Part shown: positions 975-19,366 of the stretch, piece by piece
Position numbering within the stretch: the first letter of the stretch is position 1
How the letters are laid out: each line of letters opens with the position of its first letter
Source: a virus
IMG/VR virus record: IMGVR_UViG_3300003654_000069
Span: 1 to 64,000 of that record
Length of the DNA: 64,000 nucleotides
Reading direction: 5' to 3' (one strand)
Notes under the pieces: generated by a model
Seen by the model: only the letters and a program-made list of their open reading frames with translations
What the model was told of the DNA's origin: nothing
The model's database searches: none
Program-made: the position numbers and the translations under genes

Positions 975-1018
975 GAAGGGCTATCTTGCAATCTGCAGGG
1001 TAGCCCTTCTTTTTTTTT
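975..1018 (+). terminator. rho-independent terminator at the convergence point of the plus- and minus-strand modules
   Basis: A perfect 9-bp stem, GAAGGGCTA (975-983) paired with TAGCCCTTC (1001-1009), is followed by a T9 run (1010-1018). It sits between the plus-strand stop (972) and the minus-strand stop (1017-1019). Confidence 0.8.
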
Positions 1019-4000: not shown

Positions 4001-7000
4001 TGAGATCTCCAAGGAATAGTTTTATATAAGGCTTTCTTTCATGATATCCACGACTGGCTTCTCGGAATTCTATAAGTCTCTTAGCAATAGATAAATCATA
4101 TATTCCATTAGCAGGATCATCAAACTTTGCCTTACCATCTCTATGTACTAAATAAAACAAACTATTATAATCTCTTTGGAGAGATCTGTTTATTGCATCA
4201 GATTCATCATCTCCGATTTGATCATTTGGTTTACGCTGGAATATCTGTATATTCTCAAGTGCTTTCTTTCTGGCATCAAAAGCAAGTCTTCCTATATGGT
4301 CATCAAAAAGAGTAAATTTTTCATAGAACTCAGGCACAAAATCTTGGTTCCAATAAAGACGTTCATGATCACGTATCTCTTGCTCCTTTAATCTAATCTT
4401 TTCATTGTTTGCATCGGTAAGTGGATTCCTATTCAACTCTGCAAGTTCATGAACTAGTTTAGGAAGTACTAATCTACGGTTTTTGGTTGGGTTTAAATAG
4501 GATTGAACATCTCTTTCTACCCATTCACCTTTATCATCAGTATATCCTATTTTGTCAGCAAATAATAACTGATTAGCTAAACCTTGTGTATTCATAGGAT
4601 TATATCCTAATTCTTTTAGAACATCCTGTATTTCATTTTTAAAATCTCCGAGAAGATCAAGAGCTTCGGTCTGAGCATCAGTCATGGCATCACTAAGAAA
4701 CTTGGCAAAGCCACCAATAACAAGATCACTATTCTGAAGAGGACCAAGAAGCCATTGTGCAGGAAGACTTGCATCTCCCAACTTGCCCTCTAGTATATCT
4801 TTTAGCTTTTTATCAGTAATTTGTGTCCTCTCATACTTCTTGGTTATCTCTGCAAGTGCTTCTTTGGATGCACCTTGTGTCGTAGCTTTTTTCATCGTAT
4901 CCTCATATACAATTTTCATACTAAGCTGGGTTACCTTAAGCTGCTTAAGGATAATTACATGCATTCCCGCCTTATATACTATACCAAGATTACTTTCAGC
5001 CTGTTTGAAAGTGCTAGCTATTCCACTAATAAGTTCATGTATTGGATTGGTAGTAGGAACATTATTATCATTAAGAATATTAATACTTCCCTCTATAAAT
5101 TGCTTCCAGTGTTGCACAACAGTATTATAATTAAATACTCTATAAAGATTATCAACAGCATTAAGATTATCCGTATTATCAGTAATTTGTTTAAGATGTT
5201 CATTCATTTTCTGGGCTACCAGATCAAGCCGGAGAAGACTATTAGTAAGAGCTCGGGTATGCCTCTTTGCATACTCAAGATCTACTTTAAGAGCATCTAG
5301 TTTTTTCTCCACATTTCCTTCAAAGAAACCAAGCTCCCTTTTCATTTGTGTAAGGTGACTTGGTGAATCTTGACTTATAAGAAGATCAATAACTTCTTTA
5401 TACTTTCCTCTATTTTCCTTTTGCTTCAATAAACCAACCATTGATAAAGCAGATGTATGGAAATCATTAGTAATTTGGACAATAACATTATTCTCAAGCT
5501 TTCTCAGGGCTTCTGTAAACTCCTCTTCTTTCCTTTGAAATTGTTCAACATCCGAATTTTTTATTCTGACTGTTGTCAGATTAAACTTTCCACCTGCCAT
5601 AAGCATCTCAGCCAGATCCTCAAGGGAACTGTTTACATCTAATTTCTCTACAGTAATCCTATTACCGAATATCTTTCTCAACTTCTGCTTGATGGCATAC
5701 ATAAGATTCTTAATGAACTTCATAAATGGTCCAGAATTATTGATATTATTCATTTTATTCTCAGCTGCAAGCTGAATGGACCATACAAGAGCTTCTTTCT
5801 TATATGCTGAAGTGCCTTCTTTCAGATTAGGGTACCGAGTCTCTAGAATCGTCTTGATCCGATTACTCTCATTAGATAGAAGAAACTGCGTATAGAGACT
5901 ATCAAACAGAGCTGGATCCCCCACTTCAATCGCATCAATAATAGGATGAGAGAATTCATGAAAGAGTGTTGCTGGTGATAAGAGGTCCCGTATGAAATAA
6001 GCAGTACCTCCCACATAGAATGCAGGTTCTCCTTTCCATGTTTTAGCATATGTGATAGCTTCATTTTTATCAATTATTTTATAAGGTTTACCTGTTTGGA
6101 ATGATAAGGCATCTGCCATTTTGATTAAAAATTCAAGTGCCATAGCCTGATCAGTAGATTTAAGATCCAGATTAGGTACACTTTCACCTCTATAGAATTT
6201 TGGAAAATTAGTGAAATATGGACTATAACTTTGGCTGAGTACATTAGCAACCGGTCCACCAGGAATCTTCCGGGATACATACCAGTTTCCCTTCTGTGAT
6301 TGTGTAAGAGTCCATGATTCAGGTACAACCATCTCTTTTATCTTGGCTGCAATTAGTTCCAGATCAATAGCATCAAGCTTATCGAAGATTACCCCATGCT
6401 CACTTACCTCATACATCTGATCCAGCCATTGTAGAAGCTGTCTCTGGTGAGAGGAAATGTCCATTGAATAAGATACAGCAGGATCTGAAGATGTTTTATC
6501 TCTACCCTTAATAATATCCGTTATTTTAGCTATTGTTTCTGGAGAGTTTAACAAAATAATTTGAGAAGGTTCAAATACTACTATTATATTACCCCATTCA
6601 TCTATTGGGGATTCTGAAAACTTTTTCAATTCTTCTGCAATAGTATCCTGTTTACTTAATCCTATATGAGAACCAAATATCGCATCCGAAATTTTATTTT
6701 CTCTTTTACCAATTTTAGTATTATAATAGGTTCCAAGTTCAGGATTACTAATATTCAAAATAGCAGGTGTATGAATACTTCCATATTCATCAGCACTAAA
6801 AGCTTCTCCTTCTTTTTTACGACTAAAAAATATACCATTTTCAATTTGAAATCCTCTATATAACCTTCTTTCAGATTCTTTTAATTTTCTAACAGAAGTA
6901 ATAAACTGTTCACTTCCATGCCATACTATATTCTTAACCTCACTGCCAGGTATTAACTGTTCAATAGCATATTGTATATCTTCATTACTAAATTTAGCAT

Positions 7001-7253
7001 AAGCTGGTTCTATTGATTTTAGATCATCTATATTTTTAGATTGTTCTGGAGTTATAGTAGTTTTGGTAATATCTGTTTCTGTGAGTTTTTTAGATAGGGA
7101 TTGCTGAAATACAGTAGCAACATCACTAGTACGAGTAGGTGTAGATACAATCTGTTCACCATTCTCATAGTAATTTTTATAGGCTTGGAATTCTCCTACT
7201 TCTGCTACCATGGTTTTCCAGGCAGGATCGGTTGTATTGGGGCATATACTCAT
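1017..7253 (-). CDS. giant (2078 aa) multidomain virion/ejection-type protein with an ART-like N-terminal region, an HExxH zincin motif and a C-terminal hydrophobic helix
   Basis: Uninterrupted 6.2-kb ORF. Its start overlaps the stop of the 4038-aa gene as ATGA (7250-7253). Domain motifs are listed as separate features. Confidence 0.9.
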   Translation of the reverse strand: MSICPNTTDPAWKTMVAEVGEFQAYKNYYENGEQIVSTPTRTSDVATVFQQSLSKKLTETDITKTTITPEQSKNIDDLKSIEPAYAKFSNEDIQYAIEQLIPGSEVKNIVWHGSEQFITSVRKLKESERRLYRGFQIENGIFFSRKKEGEAFSADEYGSIHTPAILNISNPELGTYYNTKIGKRENKISDAIFGSHIGLSKQDTIAEELKKFSESPIDEWGNIIVVFEPSQIILLNSPETIAKITDIIKGRDKTSSDPAVSYSMDISSHQRQLLQWLDQMYEVSEHGVIFDKLDAIDLELIAAKIKEMVVPESWTLTQSQKGNWYVSRKIPGGPVANVLSQSYSPYFTNFPKFYRGESVPNLDLKSTDQAMALEFLIKMADALSFQTGKPYKIIDKNEAITYAKTWKGEPAFYVGGTAYFIRDLLSPATLFHEFSHPIIDAIEVGDPALFDSLYTQFLLSNESNRIKTILETRYPNLKEGTSAYKKEALVWSIQLAAENKMNNINNSGPFMKFIKNLMYAIKQKLRKIFGNRITVEKLDVNSSLEDLAEMLMAGGKFNLTTVRIKNSDVEQFQRKEEEFTEALRKLENNVIVQITNDFHTSALSMVGLLKQKENRGKYKEVIDLLISQDSPSHLTQMKRELGFFEGNVEKKLDALKVDLEYAKRHTRALTNSLLRLDLVAQKMNEHLKQITDNTDNLNAVDNLYRVFNYNTVVQHWKQFIEGSINILNDNNVPTTNPIHELISGIASTFKQAESNLGIVYKAGMHVIILKQLKVTQLSMKIVYEDTMKKATTQGASKEALAEITKKYERTQITDKKLKDILEGKLGDASLPAQWLLGPLQNSDLVIGGFAKFLSDAMTDAQTEALDLLGDFKNEIQDVLKELGYNPMNTQGLANQLLFADKIGYTDDKGEWVERDVQSYLNPTKNRRLVLPKLVHELAELNRNPLTDANNEKIRLKEQEIRDHERLYWNQDFVPEFYEKFTLFDDHIGRLAFDARKKALENIQIFQRKPNDQIGDDESDAINRSLQRDYNSLFYLVHRDGKAKFDDPANGIYDLSIAKRLIEFREASRGYHERKPYIKLFLGDLKKVEQAIIDKGVGYERDSEKFNLLRRGWIDRNTIIKVKDTYAAEVKRNLDVIKLVLRNKPQAKEATEAWEKLLHIGNMHRDGNGHIVGAEILPADIQRARALEELADSLKPEGKLTAGLSPTEKTDLNNAFRELRNLRGTYATNSYINTFNGLLTKTESQVLINKYGPGATEMTDEYAEDILSDGDLRRALLANNAPLREWFRANHIQIDTTEYSDNEYKRLYVWNVKKPNSTIYLDKTDILDENGDIIEVIDRVPNSRYSVSNVKKEFRNGYDPKTGEVNLIVGKHIDNKGRMLPLSLEQGAPSNSPYINEKYYALKNSTSEMDKARFKALGIFTKYLLKTQEGIGVRGKVYLDQPRYSMVFAEVVQTKGFGDAARSPIDTFYGWVGNFIQTAKDDYDRDYNFDDAVQLVTAESFSDGNSKIPITGAGELEFNQVSVDLTMSLAKYMYSATKQKKLIEINPIAQALRTVLKDPANAIKLINSIDKNNLNNRGQVTFVDDPKSKNIRAKTIESLYEKHFLGQNLAGWGKDSKILNATVNALFGRASFAMFALDIISALKNAFTQVFQNIIEAIGGRYLGMTNYGAGTVWATQAMTELSLSIQERGGPQSIRVQLIHRFDMLRGRTERVFGEEMSRTWLKKLLDFGWFFSFRKWTESHSTVSLSAGMLDRQLVPQKVGNEIRNIPYLQAWELDSKGKLKLLDGIDPSWDKGEDFKNMRELMHSVARSTAGAYDNFSLPEAERHLLGRLTFFLNKYFIPMFMNRWAFSGPIWAPRDRIDVGRGEANKGMYIVTIEQLMKAVKTAGKSLAMMTPNEKAGVIKTVAEIAMLIVLTQLYMFLFDWDAGDDDKWEKIKARSGDMPGLFVVEDPDAPFKLDGWLANSALNLMMQIRAESDQWIPIPGLGLDNYNNMLNWKSYAFGPTLDLYVQMANDVYLMGTGDDRAYYQKDVGPYEWQQEESWKLINHAAKTVGIKGTFWSPYLATKNLVNFQAIGSKK
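1488..1553 (-). other. predicted transmembrane or membrane-inserting helix (residues 1901-1922 of the 2078-aa protein)
   Basis: A 22-residue hydrophobic run, VIKTVAEIAMLIVLTQLYMFLF, is followed by the acidic stretch DWDAGDDD. Confidence 0.45.
5946..5960 (-). other. HExxH zinc-metallopeptidase motif (HEFSH, residues 432-436 of the 2078-aa protein)
   Basis: The reverse complement of 5946-5960 is CAT GAA TTC TCT CAT. The context GGTAYFIRDLLSPATLFHEFSHPIIDAI parallels the HESWH module of the 4038-aa protein. Confidence 0.5.
6564..6932 (-). other. possible PARP/ART-like (H-[Y/F]-E type) ADP-ribosyltransferase module, residues ~108-230 of the 2078-aa protein
   Basis: The order IVWHGS ... NGIFFSRK ... 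IIVVFEPS matches the H-G-S, aromatic-F/Y-S/T and catalytic-E order of H-Y-E clade ARTs. Judged by eye only. Confidence 0.3.
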
Positions 7254-10200
7254 ATTGCGCAGGCTGCTCTTTTGATGTCTCTTACCATTTGATTGGTGAG
7301 AGGCATACTGGTTTGTAATATTCTTTCACCTTCAGTAGTACTAGTAAAGTTTTTATTTAAGTAGTTGAAATCTTTAAGTAATCTTGCCGACAAATGTGCA
7401 AAAATTCCTGGTGCAACAGCTCGTTTATCACTTAAATTATCACCAGTAATATCATCAGCACCAATAAGAGCTTGTCCCATTCCTCCTTCAGGGAATACAA
7501 TCCGCTTGGGATTAACAGGATCATTCTTCATTGCAAGAGCAGCATCCAGAACTGCATCTATTCTTTTGGCATGTGCTTCAAACTCCTTCTCAGTACCATC
7601 AGTAATCTGGGCAGTATTCTGATTTGTATAATAAGATACCCTTAATGGAATACCTATAGCATTAGTTTCACCACCTGGTCCTTTTGCTGTTTGCCATACA
7701 TGACCCGGAACACCGAAGAACTTAGTATTTACAGGTTTACCGGGAACAAGACCATCATACATAAAAATTGCATTAGGGTTCTCTATCATTATCTTCTCGG
7801 CCATCTTAACACTTTCAGATAACTTATCTGTAAATGAACTGGTATAAGTGAATACACCCGGAAAACTTTCTTTTATAAATCTTCCTTGTAAAGGTATAAG
7901 TTGAGAAGATTGTTGTGTAAAAGCTTTGATTATTACATTTTTAGTAAATTCAGCAATTCCTGGGTGACTAACTTCTCTATGTCCCGCTACATTAAGTGTT
8001 TTAATATTATTTTTTATAACAAATTCTAAAAGTTGTTCAGCAGCTTCATTAACATCTTTAGTAGTAATAACTAATACAGGACGATGTCCTTTATCACTAG
8101 ATTTCCCTGTACCATGTTGCCATTTACCTGTTTGAGCATATCCTATAGTTTTGCTTGTACCAACACTTGTTCCCCATAGAGTAGCTAATGTACCGTCTGA
8201 ATCATCTACATTTTTCATTGTTCTTTTTGGGTATGTTTTAGGATCTGATACTCCTTCAACAAGACCAAAAGACTCAAGCAAAGCTTTTTCATTCTTATCT
8301 CCACTAAGCCAATTAGGAGGGGCTGTACCACCTGTTTCAATACCTACAGCTTTAGCTCCTTCTAATCCACCTATATCTCCACCAGTTTGACCACCAGATA
8401 TAATTTTAGTGACAGCAAGTATAGTAGGTTCTACGGATGTTTGCCCCAAAGTAGCTCTATTGCTAGAGTTAATAGTATACTGTTTATACCTATCTCTATA
8501 TTGATAATTACTGGAACGGTTATTCCATGCAAACATTTCTGCAAAATTGTCTATGAAAGCAGTACCTCGTTTTCCAGAACTGATTTCATCAAGCATAGTA
8601 ATATATTTTGGCATTTCTGACTCCATAAACAAAACAGTAGTCTTCTCTGTAGGCATTATACGACCCATAGCAAACATGTTATCGGTAGCCATACCGGACT
8701 GAAGCATATTGAAGAATGGCATCTTCCGGAAGAATTCTGATATTCTCATGTTCTCCTTATCATCAGCTACTTTCATTACTCTAGGATCCATTAGATTAAG
8801 GAGACTTTCATGAAACATATTTCTCATATCAACTGTCATCCTTGGGTCATGTAAGCGAAGATTATCCATTCTTTCCAGTTGAGTTTCTCCTGGTTTAACT
8901 CCTATCTGATTGAATACAATCTGATCCAGAACAGGAAATCTGTCTGCCATATCTGTATCTCTATACTTATTCTTAAATTCTTGATACTGTTTAGCATAAC
9001 TACTGTCATTCTTAAAGACCTTCCATGTATTCCATATATTATCCAGAGCTTTATCTCGTAGAATTTCTTCATAGGAAAGTATACTTATTCTCTCATCAAA
9101 AGCAGCATGTGTTTCTCCCTCCTCTCTCTTTTGTATCTTTTCATTTCTCTCTAAATTACGTTTGAACTCATCAGTATCTTTTACATCTTTTATAGAAGTA
9201 AAGCTTCTCAGATGTTCTCTTTCTATTACGAAATGAGCATACTCATCCATTGACTCAAATACATTCTTATGAAGTGGTGCAAGACCAAGTTCTCTATATT
9301 CTGGCATAAGACCAAGACCTGGTTTTGTAATAAGATTATAGTCAGATTTGATTTTTTCTTTATCAATATACATGGTATCATTATGAACAAAGGCACCTAT
9401 CTTAAGATATCTGATTTGTGTAATAGAAGTTGTTGTATTGGTATTATACCCCTTGTACTCCTTAATATTATCTAAAGAAAATCCTCGAAGCATATCCTGA
9501 TAGATATATGATATGAAATCACTCTTCATAGTATCTATTGTCTCTTCCATATCACGATATGTTTTCTCAACAACTTCCTCAAATTTTTTATCTTCTATTT
9601 GTTTAAGTATATGGTTATTAAGTGCAGGATGATTTGAGAGTTCAAATAAAGGAGCAAGATGATGAGCGAGGAACTCAGAAATATCATAGCTACCCATTAC
9701 TGAGTCTTCCATGATATTAGTAACCATTTCTGGCCGCCATCTGCCATTCTGTTCTAGTTGTTTTGCTTTTATATGTCTGAACATAGCCATGAACATAGTA
9801 CCAGATTTTTTAGCATCAAATCTAGTAGCTAGTTTTATTTTAGTAAGACTACTACTTTGATCTTCTAGCTCAAAATAATGTAATAAGACATCAATATCAG
9901 TCTGTGATGGTTGTACAAGCTCTTCTCCTTCAACTCTTTGTCCAAATTTTTTACCCTTTTCCTTAAACACTTTAAGAGTATCGAGAAGTTCTCCTTCAGT
10001 AAATGGATTATCAGCTCTTCTGGTACGGAGATACATATATATCTCCTTCTTCATAAAGTGAATCTCTTTAGTATTTCTTATAATTTTCTGTCCGATAAGT
10101 TGTGTCTGAGCACCTTTACCTAATGCATCAAGTAAAGGTTGTGTATATCTAAGAGTCATTCCATATTTTGCATCAGATAACATAACATCCCTAGCATGGT

Positions 10201-13200
10201 TTCTAGCGTACTGTGGTTTTTCTGCAGCTTTGTTAAGGGGACCGCCAAACTGACTTTGGGCAAGTTGTTGTTCTCTTACATATGCTCTTACTAAAGGATT
10301 ATTAACAAGATAAACTGCCATCTCTTTTGTTACACCAGCTCTTCCTACCAAATAAGCAAATGTAGGAAGGACATCTAAAGAAATACCTAATCTAAATATC
10401 CACGGATCTTTTGCCACATCCACATAACCGGAAATAAGCTGGGCTTGGTATTCAGGCATTTTATATCCTTTTACATTTCTTAGTCCTGAGACAGATATTA
10501 CCTCATTACCATCATCATCTGTAACGGTATTACTATCCATATATATGGCCTGAATTCTTGCAAATTCTCTATTACCAGCCTTATCCATGAATGTATAACT
10601 CATAGGCTCACCATTATCCATAAACATTGGAGAGGTTGATGCATCTACTGCAGCAATCCCTAAACCTGCCATACCAGAACCAAATGCCTGATGCATATCT
10701 AGATTGAAGAGTTGTTCCATAACACGGGTATGACTGATTTTATCAGTCTTCTCACCATGTACATTCTCTCTAGCATCATATTCCTGAGTAAATTTCTCCA
10801 TTTCTTCTGTAAGCTTGTCATAATGGAATGTACCATTGGCACGAATAAGATCAGCAAAACCTGCAGGATCAAGAAGAATATTCTCCATAGCTAATAGTAA
10901 TTGATTCTCAGCAAATTTTGCCTCATACTCAAGAGCAAAATCTTCATAACTCTTCACTCCCTGTTCTTTTAATATATCTATTATCTCTTCTTCTGTATAA
11001 TTTCCATCATAAGCATCTGGAATTGTTGTTTCTATTAACTCATCCATTTCAGTATCTACTATCCTAATTATCTTACCATCTTCATCCTTAAGGAAATTTA
11101 CTTCAAGTGCTTTATCCCGGAGTCTTTCCCATATTTTTTTCACAGCAATAGGATCATATCCAGCTAGTCTGGGAACCCCATTAATTATGGTTATACTAGG
11201 CATAAGAGTTAATTCCTTATCACCATCAAAGTCAATACCTTTTTTAGCAAGCCATTCGGGAGGACCTATAATTATTGCTCCAGCAAGTTTTGGTAAAAAT
11301 TCATGAACTTGAACTATATCAAATGATGCTTTAGACTGACCTGGAATCCTGGGTGATATGAAACTAATCATTCTACGATTTTCATCATTAGCATACCAAC
11401 CTGGAGCTTGGATAATCTCATTGAGTCTTAATAAGGTTCTGGCAGGTTGACCATCTGGATGCACTAATTTAAGCAGCTTCTGGAAGTCTCCTTGAAGTGC
11501 AATCTTGACTCTCACAGACTGAATCTTTGAGGTATCTGGTTTCTTTACCCAGAAACCTACATTCTTATGTTCTTTTCTCTCAAAACCCTGTTCTTCCAGA
11601 AATTCAGCTATTATACCTTCTCCTGAGACATTATGTGGACTAATAGCATTAGTCTTATTGTCAGCAATGAAAGTCCGTACACCCTGGTATATGGCCTTCT
11701 TAATATGCTTTTTAATAAGTTCTACATCTTTTTCCTGATTTTTTCTTCCTCTTCCTGGAACAGAAATCATTACCTTATCAAACATGTCGTATTTATCTGC
11801 ATTAACAGCATTATCCCCACGAGCCTTTCTAAACTCATCTGCATACTTGATAGTAGAGCTTGAAGGATCATGAGAAACTGCTATAATCTTATCAGCAAAA
11901 TCAGCTTTTACCTGGTCTTTAGGAAACTTGGCACCAATAATTACAGGAGTAACCTGTCTTTCTATTGTTTTAGGATCAATTTCTCGTTCTATATGATAGC
12001 TTGCTAAACCATTACTACCATACCTCATAAGATCTGTAAAGCTTGGCTTCTTAAGTTTGATCTCTCTAACAGCATCTGAACTTTCCATACCAGCCCCAGA
12101 TACAATATTTAAAGGTTCTCCCTTTACTTTCTGTTTAATAAGTCTTCTCTCAACCATTCCTACAATCAGTCTTTCAATATCTGCGGCTGCAGGTGAAAGG
12201 GAAAGATCATGTTGAAGCTTATTCAAAATACCATTAAATTCTACAAAATCTACTTCATGTTCACCAAACTCTCCTCTTTCCAGTTCAGATTTAGCTAATG
12301 CTATAAGCTTCTCTAGATTAACCTTAGCTCCATCGCTGGTACCACTTAAATCTATATTGAGTTGCTTCTTACGAATCTCAGTCAGGTACTTTGCTGCCTT
12401 ACCAAAATCACTATGCTTTATATAGGCAGCGGAAAGCTTTCTTCTAGCTTTATCTGTAGCTTCTTTATCAATTTTACCATCTTTACCTATTACTTCAGTC
12501 TTCTTCCAGGCCTTCCTTTTTTCATCTGTGGTAACATTAGGCTTAAAATCTACAGGAACTCCATCGGACATAAGACCGGTAGTGATAAGTCTTCTCAACT
12601 GGGTAGAAAAACTAACCTTTCGCTTATACTTATCAGGAATAGATACCTGATCCTTGAGATATTCTATATAAACAGGATTCGGAGTAAATTGATAATCATC
12701 GGATGCAAAAGCAGCTATTCTATCTTCTTGATTACTATAGAACAAATCTAGTTCACCATTTTTTCCAATAGATGTAAGCTTCGACCCAGATTGAAATAAT
12801 GCATAATCGATACCTTGGGAAACCATCTTATTATGAAATATTTCCAAATTACCTGTTACAACTCCAGGAATAAGAGGTAAAAGCATCATTTTATGGAATG
12901 ACTGAAGGGGGATTCCTAGTGCTGTTGCAAGAGGACCGAACTCCTGAAGTTTCATTGTAGGAAAGAAATGTTCAGCAGCTTCAGCACTGATTTTCTCACC
13001 TTTGATAACTTTCCAATACATAGTTTCCATTTCATCAGTCCATTCATCAGAACCCATAAGCTTCTTAAGAATTCGATATGTATCAAAAGTTATCCATCCC
13101 TGTCCATCTCCTTCTTTAATACCCAGATAGTTCTTCATCTCAGCTGCAAGTATCTCATCAATTGCTTTCTTGGATAATTTTGCATCTTCCATAGTTTTTA

Positions 13201-16200
13201 CAGAATCTGCATACATTACTCTGGTATATTCTGCAAAATAAATACTATTTAATACAGAATCTTGTAGAACGGCTGACTGTACTATACCAGTCCATCTGAT
13301 ATGTATTGGCTTAAACATTCCTTCAGGGAACCACTTACTATCCATGTAAGGTCTTAATCTATTTTCCTCACCATCCATGCTGTTAATAAATGCTCGGGAA
13401 GCAGCATCATTAAGGAAACCTTTTCCTGTTGCAGGTCCTCCTGTAATACGTTTAATTGCACTTTCAGCTGATTTATACTGGGCAAGATCTCCATAAAAGA
13501 TAGTAAATGTCTCATAATTATGGATCCACATATTAGTAAGATATGCCTCAAATAAAGCTTTCTTATACTGAGGATTTGTGAAATCACCGGATATATGATG
13601 ACCCTGTCTGGCACCTGCACCAACTGATCTTAGAAGCTCTTGCATATTCTCAAGATGGGCACTATTATCAAACCCAAGTTCATTGAATGTTTCAGTAAAT
13701 TGTTTAACTCGATTATCAAAATACTTATCTAGATCTTTTATTATCTTATCCAGAAGATCCTGATTTTCTTTCTGGAGTTGTCCAAAAAGAGGATTATCAT
13801 GGTCATAGTCAGTCATTTTCATAAGCTCATCTTTCGTACTTGGAGAAAGAACATCATGAAAAAACGTGAACTTTTGTCCAGCTATGTAATAAGGAATAAG
13901 TTTACCATTTTTATCTGTAGCTTCTGTTAATGCATCACGTTCCTCTGATCCTACAGGAAGAGCTTTCAAATAATTAATCCTGGCTAGCTCATTGCTTATT
14001 TTGGAAAGAAAGATAATATTTCTTTCTTCTCTACCAGTATCAATAAGGAATTTAACAGGATCTATATAATATTTTCCAGTATGTTTTGTATTAGGTGATA
14101 TACCATTGGCCTTTGTGATCTTAGATACTCCAGACATATATGAAGTAGTTCTGTCAGAAGTTCGGGGTCCTTCAGCCCAACCTCGCTGAAAAAATGTAAT
14201 AAGATCTCCCAAAAACTTAGTAGCCTTATCAGTATCTGCTAAAGCAGATCCAGAAAGATGTATTATATCATTAAAAGTAGTAGCTACACCTGATAGATTT
14301 CCCCATATAAGTTCAACAACTGCAGTACTCTTATCTTTTTCATTAACTTTTCTCCTTTTTTCTGTTATAGGATCAAAAAGCGAGGCCATAATTATACTAT
14401 CTCTGATTAAAGGATTTCTATCTTTTTTGAGATATGACATGAAAGGAAATCTGAAAAAGAGATCATCCTCTGACTCTGAATTATTAATAGCATTGACTTG
14501 TCGTGTATTAGTAGAATGAAGAGCAAACTCATATTGAGTCTTGTTTTCTGCGGTACTGACCATAAAACCAGCAGCAGTATTATGTTGAGCTTCAAGTTCA
14601 GCTAATTTTGTAAAACGACCCTCCCATCCTGTTTTATCTCTAAGTATCTTTTCTCCTGGTATTATTTTTCCTTCAGGTGATATTTTAGGTAGATCTGTGA
14701 TATTATCTCTTTCTTGATACAATTGATTCAAAAAATCTGCTCTTAGGATAGGTTCCTTTTGGTGTATTAATATATTTAACCATCTATAAATGTGAAATAT
14801 CTGATATTTGTTATCACTATCTTTCATTATTTCAGTTTCCACTTCCAACTGTTCAGATAAGTCAATCCCAATAACTCTTAAAAATTCAGGAGATCTTAAT
14901 CTATCCAGTGTATCAACAGTACTATCTTTATCTTTAGGAGCTGCAAATTCCTTTACAACTTCTGCAATATCAAGATATACTATTCCATTAATATCTTTCT
15001 TCATGAACTTATTTCTTCCTAGTACAGGAAAGTCAGTTTGCCATTGACTCTTCATTCTTCTATGACCACCTGAAGTTTTTCCAAATGCAAAATCAAATAT
15101 ATCTACTCCTTTTGTATTTATCTCCTTATTTATAGTAAGTTGATGAAGATAGGTTCTGATCTTATCGAGGGATGCCTGAAAATCCATCCATATAACATTA
15201 ACTATTTTTTTATCACTCTTTCGATCACCAAGTCTTTCTAAGAGTTGTTTATATATATGAGCATCTGGATAATTTGGGTTGTCTCTTCTAACTACCATTC
15301 TATTATATAAAAGCTCTCTATCATTCCCACCAACCAAGTACTTAACAACTCTATTCCATACAAGCATTGGCTCCTCATAATTGAGAAAACCAAATCTGTC
15401 ATAAGCATCAGCCTGATTCTTAGACTTAAAAATGGTTTTCATGAGTACAGCTATCTCAGGAGTAGCAAAGAAGTCCAATGGAATAGTATTACCCTTTCTG
15501 TTAGGATCACTTCTTTCTTTTGCGACAGATGCACTAGTATCAAAATCATCATCTATACCTTCTAATTTCGCTTTATCCTTGGCAGTAAGAAACCGAGTAT
15601 GGTCTCTATGATAAGCAACAATCCCTTTCTTTTTATCTTTCTTAGTAGGATAAAAATTATTTTCAATATAACCCAGAAGATACATATTACGACTTTCACC
15701 AACATTAACTAGTTCTTTAGAAGGAGCTTGTTTGGCAGCTTCCTGCTGTGACATTATAAGCCGGGCAGTATCAATAGTTCTTTCAAGAGGTGAAGCAATA
15801 ATCTCAGGAATTTCTATATCCTTGAATAACTGTCCAATTTCTACAGCTTGCTTAGTACCCTTATCTGTAAGTTGTCCACCAGGAGTACCAAAAGTTTTAG
15901 TTACATTATCTATGGTTTCTCCATGTCTTACAATATGAATAGGACCATTCTTACCCTGAATAATAAAATGTGCTCCTGGTTTGAATGTACCAGCCTGTTT
16001 TACATATGCATTTCTCTGAAGTTGTGTGAATTCAGAAGGGTTCCCCTCTTTATTCCATAGACTAATTAATCCAAATGTTGAACCATGAGTAACAACTACA
16101 GTATGAGCCTTACCATTAGCTACTATATCAGATATAGCAGGAACAATTCTATTGAATGCATGATTGAAAGATTCACCATCAGAGATAATAGGCTTATCAG

Positions 16201-19200
16201 GCTTATTCATTATATTGTCAGCAATAGTCATATTTTTAGCTCTATCTTCTGGTCTTCCTACTTCAGACCCATAATCAAAACCTCTAAAACTATTAACAAG
16301 TTTAAGCTTAGACTTAACACCAGTTCTCATTGTTCTAATTTCATCAAGTACAAGGGTATATATAATTTTTTGGGAAGAAGGTTCTTTCATTAAATGATGC
16401 TCACTTATAAAATGACCTTGTCTTTTTTCCAATACTATGGCTATTTTGGTAATAATTTTATCAAGAAGACCACTTATAGCCTTAGATTCAGTATAATCAA
16501 GATTAACTGCTTCCATCGGATTGCCAGCAGCATCAGTATCAAGACCTTGAATACCTTTACGGAGAATATTGAAGTTCCGGTTACTTATATCAAAGGTAAA
16601 GTCTGAAAGATCACCTATTCTCATCTTTTCGAAAAGCTGATGGATATGTACATTATCAAGAGGACTTGCTATAACATCTTTCATACTAGTACCACCAAAA
16701 AGAGACTTGAGTATATCCCATAACCTTTTAAATATTGATTTTCTGGCTGGTCCTGAAGGGATTTTTTTACCACCAGATAACATATACTTACGGAAATCCT
16801 CTGCAAGCCACTCTTCTAATTGTTCTTCACTGGCTTTATTAAAGGCTACTGTTACACCCTTATAATCAGTAAAACTACCCTGTAATGAACCAGCCTCTTT
16901 ATAAAGTCTTTTCTTTTGTTCTTTAGTCAGGAAAAGCTGAGTGAATCCGTGCCATGACTCATGGTAAAGATCTGAGAAATCTGATCCTTTGAAAAGAACA
17001 ATACCATCAGCAGTCCATTGAGCAACTCCTGAACTGTTAACAATAGTAAACATAACTTCAAAAGGAATAAACTTTGACATAGGATGGTTTGAATACCATT
17101 TCTTGGCATCTTCTATCTGAGCTTTAGTAGCAACTAAGTTAAATGTCTTCTGAAACTTATTCTTATTCCACTTAACTTTGAATATCTCTTCAAGCTTTCT
17201 AAGTGCTGGATCTGTTAAAGGAGCTAGACTGACTGTCTTCTCTTGGGTAGGTACGGTTATATCTATATTAGGAATAGTACCCTTAGCTGCACCTAATGAT
17301 GGGGCACCAAGCATAAAATCGAGAGAGGGGTTTATAGGAGCAATCCCTCTCACACCACCATCGTCATAAGACACAGCATTAGAAAGTGTTTTTGTTGCAA
17401 TCCAATTGACATATGGTATTGCAGGTACTTTTTTAATAGATATTTTGCCATTTTTATCAGTTTCCAGACTAAACTCCTCAATCATTTTTTGGTCACTAAT
17501 AACATTATAAGTCTGGAAATTAGCCCATTTAAGAACAAGTTTTCCATTTGGGTCTTTTACCTCTACAAGCATAAAATCCTTCCCCTGATTTCTTGTTTTA
17601 GCTGCTAGTCTAGGATCACTAATTTTATCAAATAGTCTATTACCAGTTTTTAGATAAATTGCATAGGGAGTATCCTTTCCATCTTTAGTCGTCATTTCTC
17701 TACTAATAGGAACAGCATCTTTACTTATAAATGGATGACTTAGATATTTTATAATTAATTTTTTTGCTTCTTCTTTCTTAACAGCAAGCTCTTCTGGAGC
17801 AATACCGGCAGACTTATAGATATCATGACCCATGTATCTGACAGTAATATTCTTAGTATCATCTGCAAATAATTGCAATCTATCACTACTAAGTAAAAGC
17901 ATTGGTCGAAGAAGTGCTAATTTGGCATGAACAGACATGGGCTCCTTTCCTTTATCATAAATATCATCTACTATAAGACTTGCCCAACTCTCTATGTCTT
18001 CCTGAGTAATATACTTTCTAGTAAGAGGAATTTCTTCATGTACACCAGGAAGAGTTAAATTAATATTCTTTACTTCCTTTAGACCTGGAACAGGTTGAAT
18101 ATCAAAACCTTTAGATAAAGTAACTTTACTAAGATCTTCAAATTCATTTTTCGGAGTCTTGGTAATAATTCCTTGCGAACCTCCTGTTATATGGCCTATT
18201 ATCTTATTACCCTTAAGAGCACCATTATCAGTAGATAGTACATGTTTAGTAACCTGATCACGCTCCTCAGCTTGATCATTAGTAAACTTGGTTGCTTCTT
18301 CTAAGGTAATTTTTGTATATGGTTTTTTTAATGATTTTTTTACAGTTTCATTAGGATTTTCTATACCTGATTTTTCATAGTTAATACTTCCATTTTCATT
18401 TCTATGTACTCCTTTTACAGGAGAATAAAATATTCTACCATTATTTTCATCAGTAAGTTCACGTTTAACATTAAAGTATAATATTACACCATTTTCATCA
18501 GTAGCTACCATAACTACCTTTGTCTTCCAATTTGCCAAGGCAGCAGCATTATCTGTGGCATTACCATTCTCTAAAAATGCTTTATCTTGAGAACTATATT
18601 GCCCTGGAGGAATATTAGTAGCAGCCATTGCTGTATAATACAATCCTGTAGTTCCACCACCAGGTCTGATAAATTTTATATTACGACTATCATTATTATA
18701 TCTTGGATTATCTCTCAGATCATCCAAGATACTTCTCATAAATTTCATGTAGAATCCCATTTCCAGATCAGGAATATTTCTCATTATCTCAGCCCGCTGA
18801 ATACCTCTTGCTTGTTCTAAACTTTTATTATCTTCATCCCTGATTTTAGGAAGAGTTCTATGCTTAGCTTCCTGACCAGTAGTGTGGTTAAGACTTTTAA
18901 GAAGAACAGTACTTTTAATAGGCTTCTTAAATTTTCCTTTCTCTTCAGCCATTCTCTTCTGCTGTCTATCCTGTGCCTGATAAGAAAGTTCTTTACTTAT
19001 CTGCTCGGTTGTTTGAGTAGGTGTACCTTTTTCTAGATAAGTAAGAACATTAGCAATTCCTTTCTCAAGCTCTTTCCCAAACTCTCTTATATGCTTTCCG
19101 AGGGCATTCAGATCAAGACCATTATTTGCTAGATATTCTGCAAGGACTTCATTTGCTTCAGTAGACACAACAAGATTAATTGCCTTAGGAACAACTTGTA

Positions 19201-19366
19201 ATACGGATGCCGCATAGGCATGTTCATCACCTCCAATAACAAGACCCTTATCATACATATCACTAAAGAATTTATCCATAGAAAATTTAGTACCATTTTT
19301 TCTTATAGTATCTAAATTAAGACGAACAAGTTCGTATACATCACTTGGATCAAGAGGACATGCCAT
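7250..19366 (-). CDS. giant (4038 aa) virion-type two-barrel RNA polymerase fusion protein carrying zincin, histidine phosphatase and cpYpsA/SLOG modules
   Basis: Uninterrupted 12.1-kb ORF. It contains a beta-prime-like R-x-P...DFDGD motif plus three accessory enzyme signatures, each listed as a separate feature. Both gene junctions overlap (TAATG at 19364-19368, ATGA at 7250-7253). Confidence 0.85.
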   Translation of the reverse strand: MACPLDPSDVYELVRLNLDTIRKNGTKFSMDKFFSDMYDKGLVIGGDEHAYAASVLQVVPKAINLVVSTEANEVLAEYLANNGLDLNALGKHIREFGKELEKGIANVLTYLEKGTPTQTTEQISKELSYQAQDRQQKRMAEEKGKFKKPIKSTVLLKSLNHTTGQEAKHRTLPKIRDEDNKSLEQARGIQRAEIMRNIPDLEMGFYMKFMRSILDDLRDNPRYNNDSRNIKFIRPGGGTTGLYYTAMAATNIPPGQYSSQDKAFLENGNATDNAAALANWKTKVVMVATDENGVILYFNVKRELTDENNGRIFYSPVKGVHRNENGSINYEKSGIENPNETVKKSLKKPYTKITLEEATKFTNDQAEERDQVTKHVLSTDNGALKGNKIIGHITGGSQGIITKTPKNEFEDLSKVTLSKGFDIQPVPGLKEVKNINLTLPGVHEEIPLTRKYITQEDIESWASLIVDDIYDKGKEPMSVHAKLALLRPMLLLSSDRLQLFADDTKNITVRYMGHDIYKSAGIAPEELAVKKEEAKKLIIKYLSHPFISKDAVPISREMTTKDGKDTPYAIYLKTGNRLFDKISDPRLAAKTRNQGKDFMLVEVKDPNGKLVLKWANFQTYNVISDQKMIEEFSLETDKNGKISIKKVPAIPYVNWIATKTLSNAVSYDDGGVRGIAPINPSLDFMLGAPSLGAAKGTIPNIDITVPTQEKTVSLAPLTDPALRKLEEIFKVKWNKNKFQKTFNLVATKAQIEDAKKWYSNHPMSKFIPFEVMFTIVNSSGVAQWTADGIVLFKGSDFSDLYHESWHGFTQLFLTKEQKKRLYKEAGSLQGSFTDYKGVTVAFNKASEEQLEEWLAEDFRKYMLSGGKKIPSGPARKSIFKRLWDILKSLFGGTSMKDVIASPLDNVHIHQLFEKMRIGDLSDFTFDISNRNFNILRKGIQGLDTDAAGNPMEAVNLDYTESKAISGLLDKIITKIAIVLEKRQGHFISEHHLMKEPSSQKIIYTLVLDEIRTMRTGVKSKLKLVNSFRGFDYGSEVGRPEDRAKNMTIADNIMNKPDKPIISDGESFNHAFNRIVPAISDIVANGKAHTVVVTHGSTFGLISLWNKEGNPSEFTQLQRNAYVKQAGTFKPGAHFIIQGKNGPIHIVRHGETIDNVTKTFGTPGGQLTDKGTKQAVEIGQLFKDIEIPEIIASPLERTIDTARLIMSQQEAAKQAPSKELVNVGESRNMYLLGYIENNFYPTKKDKKKGIVAYHRDHTRFLTAKDKAKLEGIDDDFDTSASVAKERSDPNRKGNTIPLDFFATPEIAVLMKTIFKSKNQADAYDRFGFLNYEEPMLVWNRVVKYLVGGNDRELLYNRMVVRRDNPNYPDAHIYKQLLERLGDRKSDKKIVNVIWMDFQASLDKIRTYLHQLTINKEINTKGVDIFDFAFGKTSGGHRRMKSQWQTDFPVLGRNKFMKKDINGIVYLDIAEVVKEFAAPKDKDSTVDTLDRLRSPEFLRVIGIDLSEQLEVETEIMKDSDNKYQIFHIYRWLNILIHQKEPILRADFLNQLYQERDNITDLPKISPEGKIIPGEKILRDKTGWEGRFTKLAELEAQHNTAAGFMVSTAENKTQYEFALHSTNTRQVNAINNSESEDDLFFRFPFMSYLKKDRNPLIRDSIIMASLFDPITEKRRKVNEKDKSTAVVELIWGNLSGVATTFNDIIHLSGSALADTDKATKFLGDLITFFQRGWAEGPRTSDRTTSYMSGVSKITKANGISPNTKHTGKYYIDPVKFLIDTGREERNIIFLSKISNELARINYLKALPVGSEERDALTEATDKNGKLIPYYIAGQKFTFFHDVLSPSTKDELMKMTDYDHDNPLFGQLQKENQDLLDKIIKDLDKYFDNRVKQFTETFNELGFDNSAHLENMQELLRSVGAGARQGHHISGDFTNPQYKKALFEAYLTNMWIHNYETFTIFYGDLAQYKSAESAIKRITGGPATGKGFLNDAASRAFINSMDGEENRLRPYMDSKWFPEGMFKPIHIRWTGIVQSAVLQDSVLNSIYFAEYTRVMYADSVKTMEDAKLSKKAIDEILAAEMKNYLGIKEGDGQGWITFDTYRILKKLMGSDEWTDEMETMYWKVIKGEKISAEAAEHFFPTMKLQEFGPLATALGIPLQSFHKMMLLPLIPGVVTGNLEIFHNKMVSQGIDYALFQSGSKLTSIGKNGELDLFYSNQEDRIAAFASDDYQFTPNPVYIEYLKDQVSIPDKYKRKVSFSTQLRRLITTGLMSDGVPVDFKPNVTTDEKRKAWKKTEVIGKDGKIDKEATDKARRKLSAAYIKHSDFGKAAKYLTEIRKKQLNIDLSGTSDGAKVNLEKLIALAKSELERGEFGEHEVDFVEFNGILNKLQHDLSLSPAAADIERLIVGMVERRLIKQKVKGEPLNIVSGAGMESSDAVREIKLKKPSFTDLMRYGSNGLASYHIEREIDPKTIERQVTPVIIGAKFPKDQVKADFADKIIAVSHDPSSSTIKYADEFRKARGDNAVNADKYDMFDKVMISVPGRGRKNQEKDVELIKKHIKKAIYQGVRTFIADNKTNAISPHNVSGEGIIAEFLEEQGFERKEHKNVGFWVKKPDTSKIQSVRVKIALQGDFQKLLKLVHPDGQPARTLLRLNEIIQAPGWYANDENRRMISFISPRIPGQSKASFDIVQVHEFLPKLAGAIIIGPPEWLAKKGIDFDGDKELTLMPSITIINGVPRLAGYDPIAVKKIWERLRDKALEVNFLKDEDGKIIRIVDTEMDELIETTIPDAYDGNYTEEEIIDILKEQGVKSYEDFALEYEAKFAENQLLLAMENILLDPAGFADLIRANGTFHYDKLTEEMEKFTQEYDARENVHGEKTDKISHTRVMEQLFNLDMHQAFGSGMAGLGIAAVDASTSPMFMDNGEPMSYTFMDKAGNREFARIQAIYMDSNTVTDDDGNEVISVSGLRNVKGYKMPEYQAQLISGYVDVAKDPWIFRLGISLDVLPTFAYLVGRAGVTKEMAVYLVNNPLVRAYVREQQLAQSQFGGPLNKAAEKPQYARNHARDVMLSDAKYGMTLRYTQPLLDALGKGAQTQLIGQKIIRNTKEIHFMKKEIYMYLRTRRADNPFTEGELLDTLKVFKEKGKKFGQRVEGEELVQPSQTDIDVLLHYFELEDQSSSLTKIKLATRFDAKKSGTMFMAMFRHIKAKQLEQNGRWRPEMVTNIMEDSVMGSYDISEFLAHHLAPLFELSNHPALNNHILKQIEDKKFEEVVEKTYRDMEETIDTMKSDFISYIYQDMLRGFSLDNIKEYKGYNTNTTTSITQIRYLKIGAFVHNDTMYIDKEKIKSDYNLITKPGLGLMPEYRELGLAPLHKNVFESMDEYAHFVIEREHLRSFTSIKDVKDTDEFKRNLERNEKIQKREEGETHAAFDERISILSYEEILRDKALDNIWNTWKVFKNDSSYAKQYQEFKNKYRDTDMADRFPVLDQIVFNQIGVKPGETQLERMDNLRLHDPRMTVDMRNMFHESLLNLMDPRVMKVADDKENMRISEFFRKMPFFNMLQSGMATDNMFAMGRIMPTEKTTVLFMESEMPKYITMLDEISSGKRGTAFIDNFAEMFAWNNRSSNYQYRDRYKQYTINSSNRATLGQTSVEPTILAVTKIISGGQTGGDIGGLEGAKAVGIETGGTAPPNWLSGDKNEKALLESFGLVEGVSDPKTYPKRTMKNVDDSDGTLATLWGTSVGTSKTIGYAQTGKWQHGTGKSSDKGHRPVLVITTKDVNEAAEQLLEFVIKNNIKTLNVAGHREVSHPGIAEFTKNVIIKAFTQQSSQLIPLQGRFIKESFPGVFTYTSSFTDKLSESVKMAEKIMIENPNAIFMYDGLVPGKPVNTKFFGVPGHVWQTAKGPGGETNAIGIPLRVSYYTNQNTAQITDGTEKEFEAHAKRIDAVLDAALAMKNDPVNPKRIVFPEGGMGQALIGADDITGDNLSDKRAVAPGIFAHLSARLLKDFNYLNKNFTSTTEGERILQTSMPLTNQMVRDIKRAACAI
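7922..8419 (-). other. cpYpsA-type SLOG domain (former 'putative molybdenum carrier' family), residues ~3650-3815
   Basis: IISGGQTGGDIGG (SGGQTGGD at nt 8375-8398) ... ETGGTAPPNW ... YPKRTMKNVDDSDGTLATLWG ... LNVAGHREVSHPGI. These match the GGQTG-x-D, RT-x-NV-x-DSDGTL and NVAG-x-RE signature blocks of that family as I remember them. Confidence 0.65.
11219..11362 (-). other. catalytic double-psi beta-barrel of a multisubunit-type RNA polymerase (DFDGD = residues 2712-2716, nt 11219-11233)
   Basis: FISPRIPGQSKASFDIVQVHEFLP...AKKGIDFDGDKELTLMP parallels bacterial beta-prime NRAPTLHRLGIQAFEP...AYNADFDGDQMAVH. R2673 lies 39 residues before the Asp triad. Confidence 0.75.
15752..16300 (-). other. 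histidine phosphatase (PGAM/SixA superfamily) domain, apparently circularly permuted (residues ~1023-1205)
   Basis: C-terminal-half motifs (FDYGSEVG, DGESFNHAFNRI, VVVTHGSTFGLI with H1094 at 16085-16087) come before the N-terminal-half motifs (IVRHGET with R1147-E1150 at 15917-15928, then LTDKGTKQA and SPLERTIDTA). Confidence 0.6.
16877..17149 (-). other. HExxH zincin-like metallopeptidase module (HESWH = residues 802-806, nt 16949-16963)
   Basis: The reverse complement of 16949-16963 is CAT GAG TCA TGG CAC. The context is GVAQWTADGIVLFKGSDFSDLYHESWHGFTQLF. Confidence 0.5.

Follow-up and report, generated by a model that had tools for sequence, protein, structure and literature searches.

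A predicted crAss-type two-barrel RNA polymerase carrying a permuted histidine phosphatase and a cpYpsA domain in a single 4038-residue chain

Which parts of a giant viral protein belong to its polymerase scaffold, and which are unrelated enzymes that a single lineage has joined to it? We took up this question for an open reading frame (ORF) of 4038 amino acids at positions 7250..19366, on the minus strand, of a 64,000-nucleotide stretch of viral DNA (positions 1 to 64,000 of IMG/VR record IMGVR_UViG_3300003654_000069; hereafter the window). An initial annotation, made from the letters of the window alone, had read this ORF as a virion-type two-barrel RNA polymerase fused to an HExxH zincin, a histidine phosphatase and a cpYpsA SLOG domain. 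We find, from sequence alignments, a family profile and a predicted fold that agree with this polymerase reading, that the ORF encodes a single-chain two-barrel RNA polymerase of the type of phi14:2 gp66, from a distant crAss-like phage.

The frame runs uninterrupted from ATG to stop over the whole annotated interval, and it overlaps its neighbors at both junctions (TAATG holds its own start and the upstream stop, ATGA its own stop and the downstream start). G+C content is about 35% across the region; at this composition roughly 7% of random codons would be stops, so by our own arithmetic 4038 stop-free codons have p of about e^-297 and chance is excluded. Each of the motifs noted earlier was found in its place, namely HESWH at residues 802-806, RHG at 1147-1149, GGQTG at 3658-3662, and R-I-P at 2673-2675, which lies 39 residues ahead of DFDGD at 2712-2716 (nucleotides 11219-11233). 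To place the protein among its relatives, we ran an exhaustive representative search with residues 2001-3100 as the query, which returned 1326 metagenomic proteins at E ≤ 1e-3, 458 of them with E ≤ 1e-30; all counts of modules and lengths given here refer to the best 150 of these 1326. A word-index search with the same residues had come back empty, which in view of the exhaustive result reflects the index and not biology. From the N terminus onward, the chain divides as follows.

17147..19366, minus strand: N-terminal region, residues 1-740, conserved scaffold, found by jackhmmer in 103 of 150 relatives
16472..17146, minus strand: zincin-like region (putative metallopeptidase), residues 741-965, with HESWH at nucleotides 16949-16963 and LEEWLAEDFR at residues 850-859
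15722..16321, minus strand: circularly permuted histidine phosphatase, residues 1016-1215, from Pfam, PDB alignments and re-permutation
13367..15586, minus strand: gp66-like N-terminal body, residues 1261-2000, found in 115 of 150 relatives
12086..13366, minus strand: region of the first double-psi beta-barrel and start of the connector, residues 2001-2427, from BLASTP to gp66 and the model
11537..12085, minus strand: alpha/beta, Rossmann-like insert, residues 2428-2610, in the connector between the barrels
10067..11536, minus strand: catalytic barrel with DFDGD, followed by a segment aligned to the bridge helix/trigger loop stretch of gp66, residues 2611-3100
8447..10066, minus strand: C-terminal polymerase body, residues 3101-3640, found in 143 of 150 relatives
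7928..8416, minus strand: cpYpsA SLOG domain, residues 3651-3813, between the polymerase body and the tail
7253..7876, minus strand: C-terminal tail domain, residues 3831-4038, DUF7831-like by transitive homology

Similarity to gp66 was detected at the level of single sequences, profiles and structure. In a tblastn search against GenBank phages, residues 1300-3640 matched phi14:2 g066 ("Catalytic RNA polymerase subunit"; E = 5e-8) and the polymerase gene of crAssphage. Direct BLASTP comparison aligned residues 2640-3027 with gp66 residues 1281-1655 (E = 1e-13) and, collinear with this catalytic match, residues 2032-2203 with gp66 residues 919-1072. We built a profile from 29 family members, which matched PDB entry 6VR4 in three collinear blocks reaching from gp66 residue 188 to 1683 (E = 2.4e-50), with profile positions 942-1812 aligning with gp66 residues 188-1086. 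We then modeled residues 2001-3100 with AlphaFold, using the family alignment as input, and obtained a structure with a predicted local distance difference test score (pLDDT) of 73.9 and a predicted template-modeling score of 0.75. Foldseek matched this model to 6VR4_A at E = 2e-24 (probability 1.0, template-modeling score 0.51, 1077 columns), with RNA polymerase beta-prime subunits among the next, non-significant matches (E of 0.2 and above); against BFVD, the model matched dozens of crAss-like phage proteins. The barrel fold expected around residues 2670-2720 was predicted, the model having mostly confident beta structure at residues 2138-2240 and 2668-2734; in the strands at 2138-2240, some 10-residue blocks had pLDDT of about 72-79.

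Conservation marks both barrels. Around the catalytic site, R2673, P2675, Q2677, K2708, G2710, D2712, D2714, D2716 and K2717 are invariant, and the three catalytic aspartates are invariant in a 52-sequence alignment. In the first barrel, D2095, R2098, K2139, H2158, K2159, K2196, K2238 and R2258 are invariant in one family alignment (A1), and most of them are only at least 90% conserved in another (A2). The DFDGD motif sits over gp66 DFDID (residues 1361-1365), and R-x-P precedes the motif by 39 residues in both proteins. The annotated correspondence with the gp66 site thus holds for the alignment, while the glycine has no counterpart in gp66 itself. Among the 150 relatives, DFDID alone occurs in 101, DFDVD alone in 27 and DFDYD alone in 5; DFDGD is confined to the protein of the sister contig. 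All crAss-like polymerases have been described as carrying Ile or Val at the fourth position of the motif, a feature tied in the same work to an inactive resting conformation (10.1101/2020.03.07.982082). The glycine found here gives the canonical cellular DFDGD and departs from that description.

The protein belongs to a large branch of crAss-type polymerases from the environment, for which these searches found no close relative among GenBank phages. A megablast search of GenBank phages found no match and an IMG/VR pattern scan no relatives, and the polymerase scaffolds of the relatives are 44% identical or less to the 4038-residue protein. The core was found in all 150. At least 3000 residues were counted in 133 relatives, with a median of 3514 among those; 17 reach at least 4000 and the longest has 4984. 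The near-doubling of length relative to gp66, noted in the initial annotation, therefore characterizes the clade as a whole and is ordinary for this large uncultured group. Family members have in common an order of N-terminal region, HExxH region, gp66-like body and C-terminal tail that adds up to about 3400 residues, and subtracting three extra segments (~600 residues) from the protein studied here brings it to about 3400, the family norm. On this comparison, only the histidine phosphatase, the alpha/beta insert and the cpYpsA domain are lineage-specific, that is, rare or unique among the relatives. The first 740 residues, the tail and the HExxH region, the last of which had been read as a fused enzyme module, turn out to be shared scaffold in most of the best 150. 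Few of these segments are recognized by standard libraries: PHROGs detected the phosphatase and nothing else in the whole protein, Pfam on 450-residue tiles detected nothing besides His_Phos_1 and cpYpsA, and residues 1-740 matched neither Pfam nor PHROG entries.

We next considered the lineage-specific segments. As a member of branch 1 of the histidine phosphatase superfamily, the phosphatase region was matched by Pfam His_Phos_1 in two stretches (E = 8e-21, 75-82 bits against a cut-off of 21.7). In PDB alignments the canonical C-terminal half maps to residues 1033-1098 (VVTHG, with H1093), and the canonical N-terminal half follows it at residues 1143-1209 (RHG, with R1147 and H1148; SPLER, with R1198). 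The native order gives two high-scoring segment pairs, swapped. When residues 1139-1225 were placed ahead of residues 1016-1138, the re-permuted sequence aligned with canonical phosphatases as one such pair, residues 5-187 against 3-179 (E = 9e-16). The presence of a histidine phosphatase had thus been called correctly, and its span is corrected from about 1023-1205 to about 1016-1215, with its halves swapped. By alignment all four catalytic residues, Arg, His, Arg and His, are retained (R1147, H1148, R1198, H1093); the proton donor is uncertain since the position of the usual Glu aligns with Gly. The domain occurs in two of the 150 relatives: P0001, which is from the same phage, and P0130, where a degenerate copy stands at a different site, in the connector (residues 2396-2519). 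The P0130 copy keeps the permuted order and has lost the catalytic residues, with KTD for RHG and VNTS for THGS.

The cpYpsA SLOG domain, annotated from the outset, lies in the same frame as the polymerase. Pfam cpYpsA aligned with residues 3655-3813 over profile positions 1-142 of 145 (E = 1.4e-21), and PDB entry 3imk matched at E = 6e-8. The Gly-rich nucleotide-binding loop, GGQTGGD, and the motifs RT.KNV.DSDGTL and NVAG.R are common to the domain, to 3imk and to gp55 of IAS virus. Only P0001 has the domain among the 150 relatives. The closest homologues are stand-alone phage proteins of 168-176 residues, which are 63-65% identical to it, as against 44% at most for the polymerase scaffolds. 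Their genes lie in phage-like contigs of 80-126 kb, in arrays of small genes, each 1-1.5 kb from a NADAR gene; fusions of NADAR and cpYpsA also occur. Two such loci, on separate contigs, are the following.

Contig L006, 647-1153 and 2671-3159: stand-alone cpYpsA/NADAR locus
Contig L008, 10001-10531 and 11330-11869: stand-alone cpYpsA/NADAR locus

In IAS virus (NC_049978), the 837-residue gp55 (8152-10665), annotated as 'molybdenum carrier', has its gene immediately upstream of that for the polymerase, with an overlap between the two. It matches Pfam cpYpsA at E = 7e-27, falls in the same cpYpsA subfamily as the domain studied here (37% identity, E = 1e-22), and gives a weak DUF7831 signal. Neighboring genes in one phage and a fusion in another point to cpYpsA and the polymerase block being linked in function. 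Judging from the sequences, the cpYpsA module was probably a separate phage gene before its capture. Viral YpsA-like SLOG domains, which frequently occur together with NADAR or Macro domains, have been predicted to act against immune signals of the cyclic ADP-ribose type (PMC9503650); a biochemical characterization of cpYpsA was not found in the literature.

The third lineage-specific segment, the alpha/beta insert, occupies a site at which the family consensus has about 10 residues. A single-pass phmmer search found it in four of the 150 relatives, P0001 together with P0011, P0017 and P0018, always at the same site. Its model has pLDDT of 40-75 and it has no Pfam match. A jackhmmer search with residues 2441-2630 drifted into the flanking core until every relative matched, and was not used.

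Beyond the polymerase body, module content changes from relative to relative. The tail was detected by jackhmmer in 119 relatives and lies at the extreme C terminus in 113; it has no direct Pfam match in the 4038-residue protein, and homologous tail segments in P0132 match Pfam DUF7831. Inserts of more than 160 residues between the polymerase body and the tail, or inside the tail, occur in 28 relatives, and a further 34 have long, divergent C-terminal regions. In P0043 (with a superfamily 1, SF1, helicase), P0039, P0130 and P0025 the tail itself is split by large inserts, an internal insertion site. Pfam identified, in the largest inserts, SF1 helicases (AAA_30, UvrD_C_2, PIF1), ART-PolyVal, a 2OG-Fe(II) oxygenase (AlkB-like) and DUF7831, and in local searches each module type recurred in 4-7 of the 150. 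These other modules sit at or near the C-terminal insertion site, and several are unassigned. Suspected SLOG-like and NADAR-like modules in relatives gave Pfam cpYpsA at E = 0.068 in one case and nothing in the other. Among the structure matches from gut crAss-like phages, UniProt names include DNA helicase, ART-PolyVal-like, NTF2 and DUF7831 domain-containing proteins.

Unlike these modules, the HExxH region is nearly constant, being present in 137 relatives. Over those 137 sequences H802, E803 and H806 are 98.5% conserved, E851 and E852 100%, E856 96% and R859 99%, which yields a near-invariant family signature, YHEAWHGF...LEE(Y/W)LAEDFR. As a motif, HExxH with downstream Glu is the gluzincin pattern, in which E851, E852 and E856 are candidates for the third zinc ligand. 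The family hidden Markov model matched residues 2135-2208 of the crAss001 cargo protein gp47, which has HEAFH at residue 2157 (E = 7.6e-11), and by this match the region is homologous to the C terminus of gp47; the same model matched neither the HExxH of phi14:2 gp65 nor that of the giant protein encoded downstream. Characterized peptidases matched weakly, PPEP-1/Zmp1 at E = 0.12 and, for 2 of 29 family fragments, Pfam ATLF at E = 0.019, and the Pfam MPTase models gave no match to the region. An AlphaFold model of residues 700-1260 was mostly helical with pLDDT of 58.5, and Foldseek found no match to it below E = 0.7 and no peptidase; MAFFT had placed three canonical phosphatases over the N-terminal part of its input alignment, which may have degraded the model. 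Given the weak peptidase matches and the poor model, we call the region zincin-like on motif evidence. Of the annotated zincin, the motif and its conservation stand, and the zincin fold was not confirmed structurally, nor was the fold of the permuted phosphatase, which the same model covered.

We then asked whether the single frame is real, since a chimera created by misassembly, or a sequencing error that removed stops, could also produce a long ORF. The sequence is metagenomic, and an independent second contig, L002 (JGI 3300003653), is 99.9% identical to window positions 23810..1772. L002 reads residues 1-3817 in the same frame, with 2 amino-acid differences before a deletion: it lacks window positions 7601-7914 (314 nucleotides, not a multiple of three) at the border of cpYpsA and tail, so that its ORF ends at 3820 residues, three codons past that border, and the remainder of the tail becomes a 93-residue ORF. 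It also lacks 288 nucleotides (window 5056-5343), in frame, from the downstream giant gene. The L002 junctions, at 15896/15897 and around 18145-18154, show microhomology of only 2-10 nucleotides. These two deletions, one of which ends the ORF after cpYpsA, are what an artefact has in its favor. Against it, residues 1-3817 form one frame in L002 as well; single ORFs of 3000-4984 residues, their domains in the same order, occur in more than 130 relatives; the tail has its homologue in the C-terminal domain of 119 relatives and is thus expected in frame; and composition is uniform across the region. As an in-frame tail is the family norm, we take the window to be the intact state and L002 to be a deletion variant or a misassembly. 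We can in effect exclude that assembly joined the N-terminal region, HExxH region, phosphatase, polymerase and cpYpsA; the possible flaw raised with the annotation is very unlikely, and we regard an artefactual ORF as barely credible.

The genomic setting is that of a virion block. ORFs of at least 150 residues in the window are co-directional, 24 on the minus strand against 1 on the plus strand, and the 63-kb co-directional block includes the portal and major-capsid genes and ends in three overlapping giant ORFs. This order of three giants after the structural genes matches phi14:2 and the relative P0002, with the 4038-residue ORF as the middle gene. Its neighbors are the following.

19366..26970, minus strand: upstream giant gene, 2534 residues, in the position of phi14:2 gp67 by synteny
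1017..7253, minus strand: downstream giant gene, 2078 residues, at the place held by gp65 in phi14:2, to which it is weakly similar (gp65, E = 2e-4)

Since sequence similarity is slight for gp65 and was not detectable between the upstream giant and gp67, the equivalence of the two flanking genes to gp65 and gp67 rests on position. Residues 94-232 of the downstream giant are ART-PolyVal-like: Pfam ART-PolyVal matched at E = 4e-4, below the curated cut-off, and the segment aligned in BLASTP with the ART module of P0108 (E = 8e-6). The same protein has HEFSH at residues 432-436. An ART domain with a zincin is the classic pair of polyvalent proteins, and both signals are present in this giant.

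Elsewhere in the block, the 1704-residue ORF at 42044-47158 (minus strand) matches PHROG 'virion structural protein' families (phrog_37948, E = 1e-41; phrog_15100). Four large ORFs (957-1578 residues) between it and the giant block had no PHROG match, and three of them (957, 1356 and 1108 residues) had none in a Pfam scan. The major capsid protein (59256-60881, minus strand) has as its top GenBank match Leptolyngbya phage Lbo-JY46, with 28.6% identity over 99% of the query; the next matches are an epsilon crAss-like phage and Cellulophaga phi4:1-type phages.

What would such a chain do? In our reading the 4038-residue protein is a virion protein of the "polyvalent" kind with a two-barrel polymerase as its base, its packaging being predicted from known relatives. 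The polymerase, His_Phos_1 and cpYpsA signals lie in one frame within a co-directional structural block, as is looked for in polyvalent proteins. The explanation we consider best overall, and somewhat better than an even bet, is that of a packaged and injected polymerase with a processing HExxH domain and modules that act from time zero. Under this explanation the capsid would hold the protein and release it ahead of the DNA, as with gp66 and the crAss001 cargo proteins, and the ejected polymerase would then transcribe early genes. The conserved HExxH domain would be a processing or activating peptidase, as proposed for polyvalent proteins, and the phosphatase and SLOG modules would reach the host at time zero, where they may act on molecules derived from nucleotides or ADP-ribose, host immune signals being the most plausible targets. 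The entry of the accessory modules with the DNA, which the initial annotation had suggested, is plausible. A bolder form of the idea, which we put forward only tentatively, is that the polymerase of this clade is an injection chassis for swappable counter-defence cassettes: here, a cpYpsA module captured from an early-gene cpYpsA/NADAR cassette and a permuted phosphatase would jointly bind or dismantle immune signals derived from ADP-ribose or nucleotides before the phage expresses any gene, and the insertion sites, the C-terminal one most clearly, would be the record of an arms race in which relatives took up helicase, ART, AlkB-like and other cassettes.

Two other accounts keep the protein in the virion and differ in how its parts would work. 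In one, the chain is a polyprotein cut by its HExxH domain or by another protease, so that polymerase, phosphatase and SLOG proteins act separately and the fusion matters only for co-packaging or stoichiometry; this overlaps with the packaged, injected polymerase described above and differs from it mainly on cleavage. The near-invariant HExxH...E in 137 relatives speaks for cleavage, as do the view in the gp66 preprint that cleavage of such giant fusions is likely and that a zincin may activate the polymerase (10.1101/2020.03.07.982082), the autoproteolysis by zincin domains of polyvalent proteins proposed by Iyer et al. in 2017 (PMC5512222), and the existence of the modules as separate genes elsewhere (IAS gp55, stand-alone cpYpsA). 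However, no cleavage sites are known, the N4 virion polymerase, which also has a zincin, is packaged unprocessed (PMC5512222), and the phosphatase and alpha/beta insert lie inside the scaffold, where the alpha/beta insert could be freed only by severing one polymerase barrel from the other; we regard this account as possible and distinctly the weaker of the two. In the other, SLOG and perhaps the phosphatase are regulatory sensors that bind host nucleotides and switch the polymerase on or off, for example by relieving an autoinhibition of the gp66 type, and would not be directed against host immunity. Some SLOG domains are non-catalytic ligand sensors, control by a sensor has been proposed for phage fusions of SLOG with nucleic-acid enzymes (PMC9503650), and gp66 is autoinhibited by a cleft-blocking domain (10.1101/2020.03.07.982082). 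Swappable effectors nevertheless fit better than regulation of the core, because the modules are missing from nearly all 150 relatives, which have other effector-like enzymes (ART, helicase, AlkB-like) in or close to the C-terminal insertion site; the nearest cpYpsA relatives are, moreover, stand-alone genes adjoining NADAR genes, and the phosphatase keeps its catalytic residues. Sensing is thus, in our judgment, unlikely. Production of the polymerase after infection, as in non-virion two-barrel phage polymerases, with the modules acting later, is more improbable still: presence in particles is drawn here from homologues, and the phage is distant from those in which packaging has been shown, but the gene is co-directional with the structural block and stands at its end in the order of phi14:2, all three of whose giants were found in particles (10.1101/2020.03.07.982082), and the crAss001 cargo proteins, including the homologue gp47, were seen in virions by mass spectrometry (PMC10172136).

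Several observations weigh against the packaged, injected polymerase itself. For this phage, packaging and ejection, the synthesis of RNA, proteolytic processing and any anti-defence role are predictions. The zincin label combines motif conservation with the weak matches given above (E of 0.12 and 0.019) and a model that matched no peptidase. The phosphatase and cpYpsA are each without a known substrate, and the phosphatase has Gly where its proton-donor Glu usually stands. With 28.6% identity in the best capsid match, the phage is no more than a distant relative of the classified Crassvirales. Finally, the truncation of L002 just past cpYpsA means that the tail is dispensable, that the variant is defective, or that the assembly of L002 is wrong.

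Should the modules enter together with the DNA, the phage could act on host nucleotide signaling before any phage transcription. A family of more than 1300 proteins with different enzymes at the same few insertion sites forms a natural catalogue of candidate early effectors, on a chassis type, the gp66 polymerase, for which a crystal structure and an activity assay already exist. The canonical DFDGD of this member also bears on the autoinhibition model proposed for gp66.

How, then, does this protein compare with known systems? It is closest in plan to phi14:2 gp66 (PDB 6VR4), which is likewise a single chain with two barrels and a D-x-D-x-D motif, encoded by the middle gene of a three-giant block, and which is packaged in the virion and transcribes early genes (10.1101/2020.03.07.982082). 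The protein here is 1858 residues longer and about 20% identical in the aligned core; it has an N-terminal extension of ~1000 residues with a conserved HExxH domain, which gp66 lacks, a DUF7831-like tail and three inserted modules, and Gly instead of Ile or Val in its catalytic motif. A further comparison is with the crAss001 cargo proteins gp47, gp49 and gp50 and other giants of gut crAss-like phages: the HExxH...LEExxAExFR signature recurs in gp47, and our model matches the predicted structures of many gut crAss-like phage proteins. In crAss001, however, HExxH lies at the C terminus of a separate giant, encoded on the strand opposite to the polymerase, whereas in the 4038-residue protein it falls within the first quarter of the polymerase chain. 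The cpYpsA of IAS virus gp55 is similarly a separate gene that overlaps the start of the polymerase, and here it is an in-frame insertion near the C terminus.

The type of architecture has precedents, of which the initial annotation was not aware. Zincin domains and polyprotein fusions were reported in crAss transcription blocks (Drobysheva et al. preprint), and Iyer et al. (2017, PMC5512222), whose polyvalent proteins come from phages and from conjugative elements, found a zincin fused to every virion polymerase of the N4 type, with ART, lysozyme or RNase domains added in some. For the combination of a phosphatase and a cpYpsA module on such a polymerase, we found no description in the literature: the polyvalent-protein paper (PMC5512222) mentions neither histidine phosphatase nor cpYpsA nor crAss-like phages, and a term search of one crAss paper found no mention of the two domains. 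The protein resembles polyvalent proteins as a giant, virion-associated chain that joins unrelated enzymes, with an HExxH domain, putatively zincin-like, as recurrent hub, with ART-PolyVal in its relatives and probably in the neighboring giant, and with delivery predicted at DNA entry. It differs from the N4-type polyvalent polymerases, which are T7-like and single-subunit, in that its polymerase hub is two-barrel and beta/beta-prime-like. A two-barrel virion polymerase within a giant multifunctional virion protein also has a precedent in the 5002-residue P23-45 gp96 (10.1101/2022.12.01.518664); there the polymerase belongs to another lineage, without a clamp, and its partner is a tail tape-measure, structural rather than enzymatic, whereas the partners found here are predicted enzyme modules set into a crAss-type scaffold.

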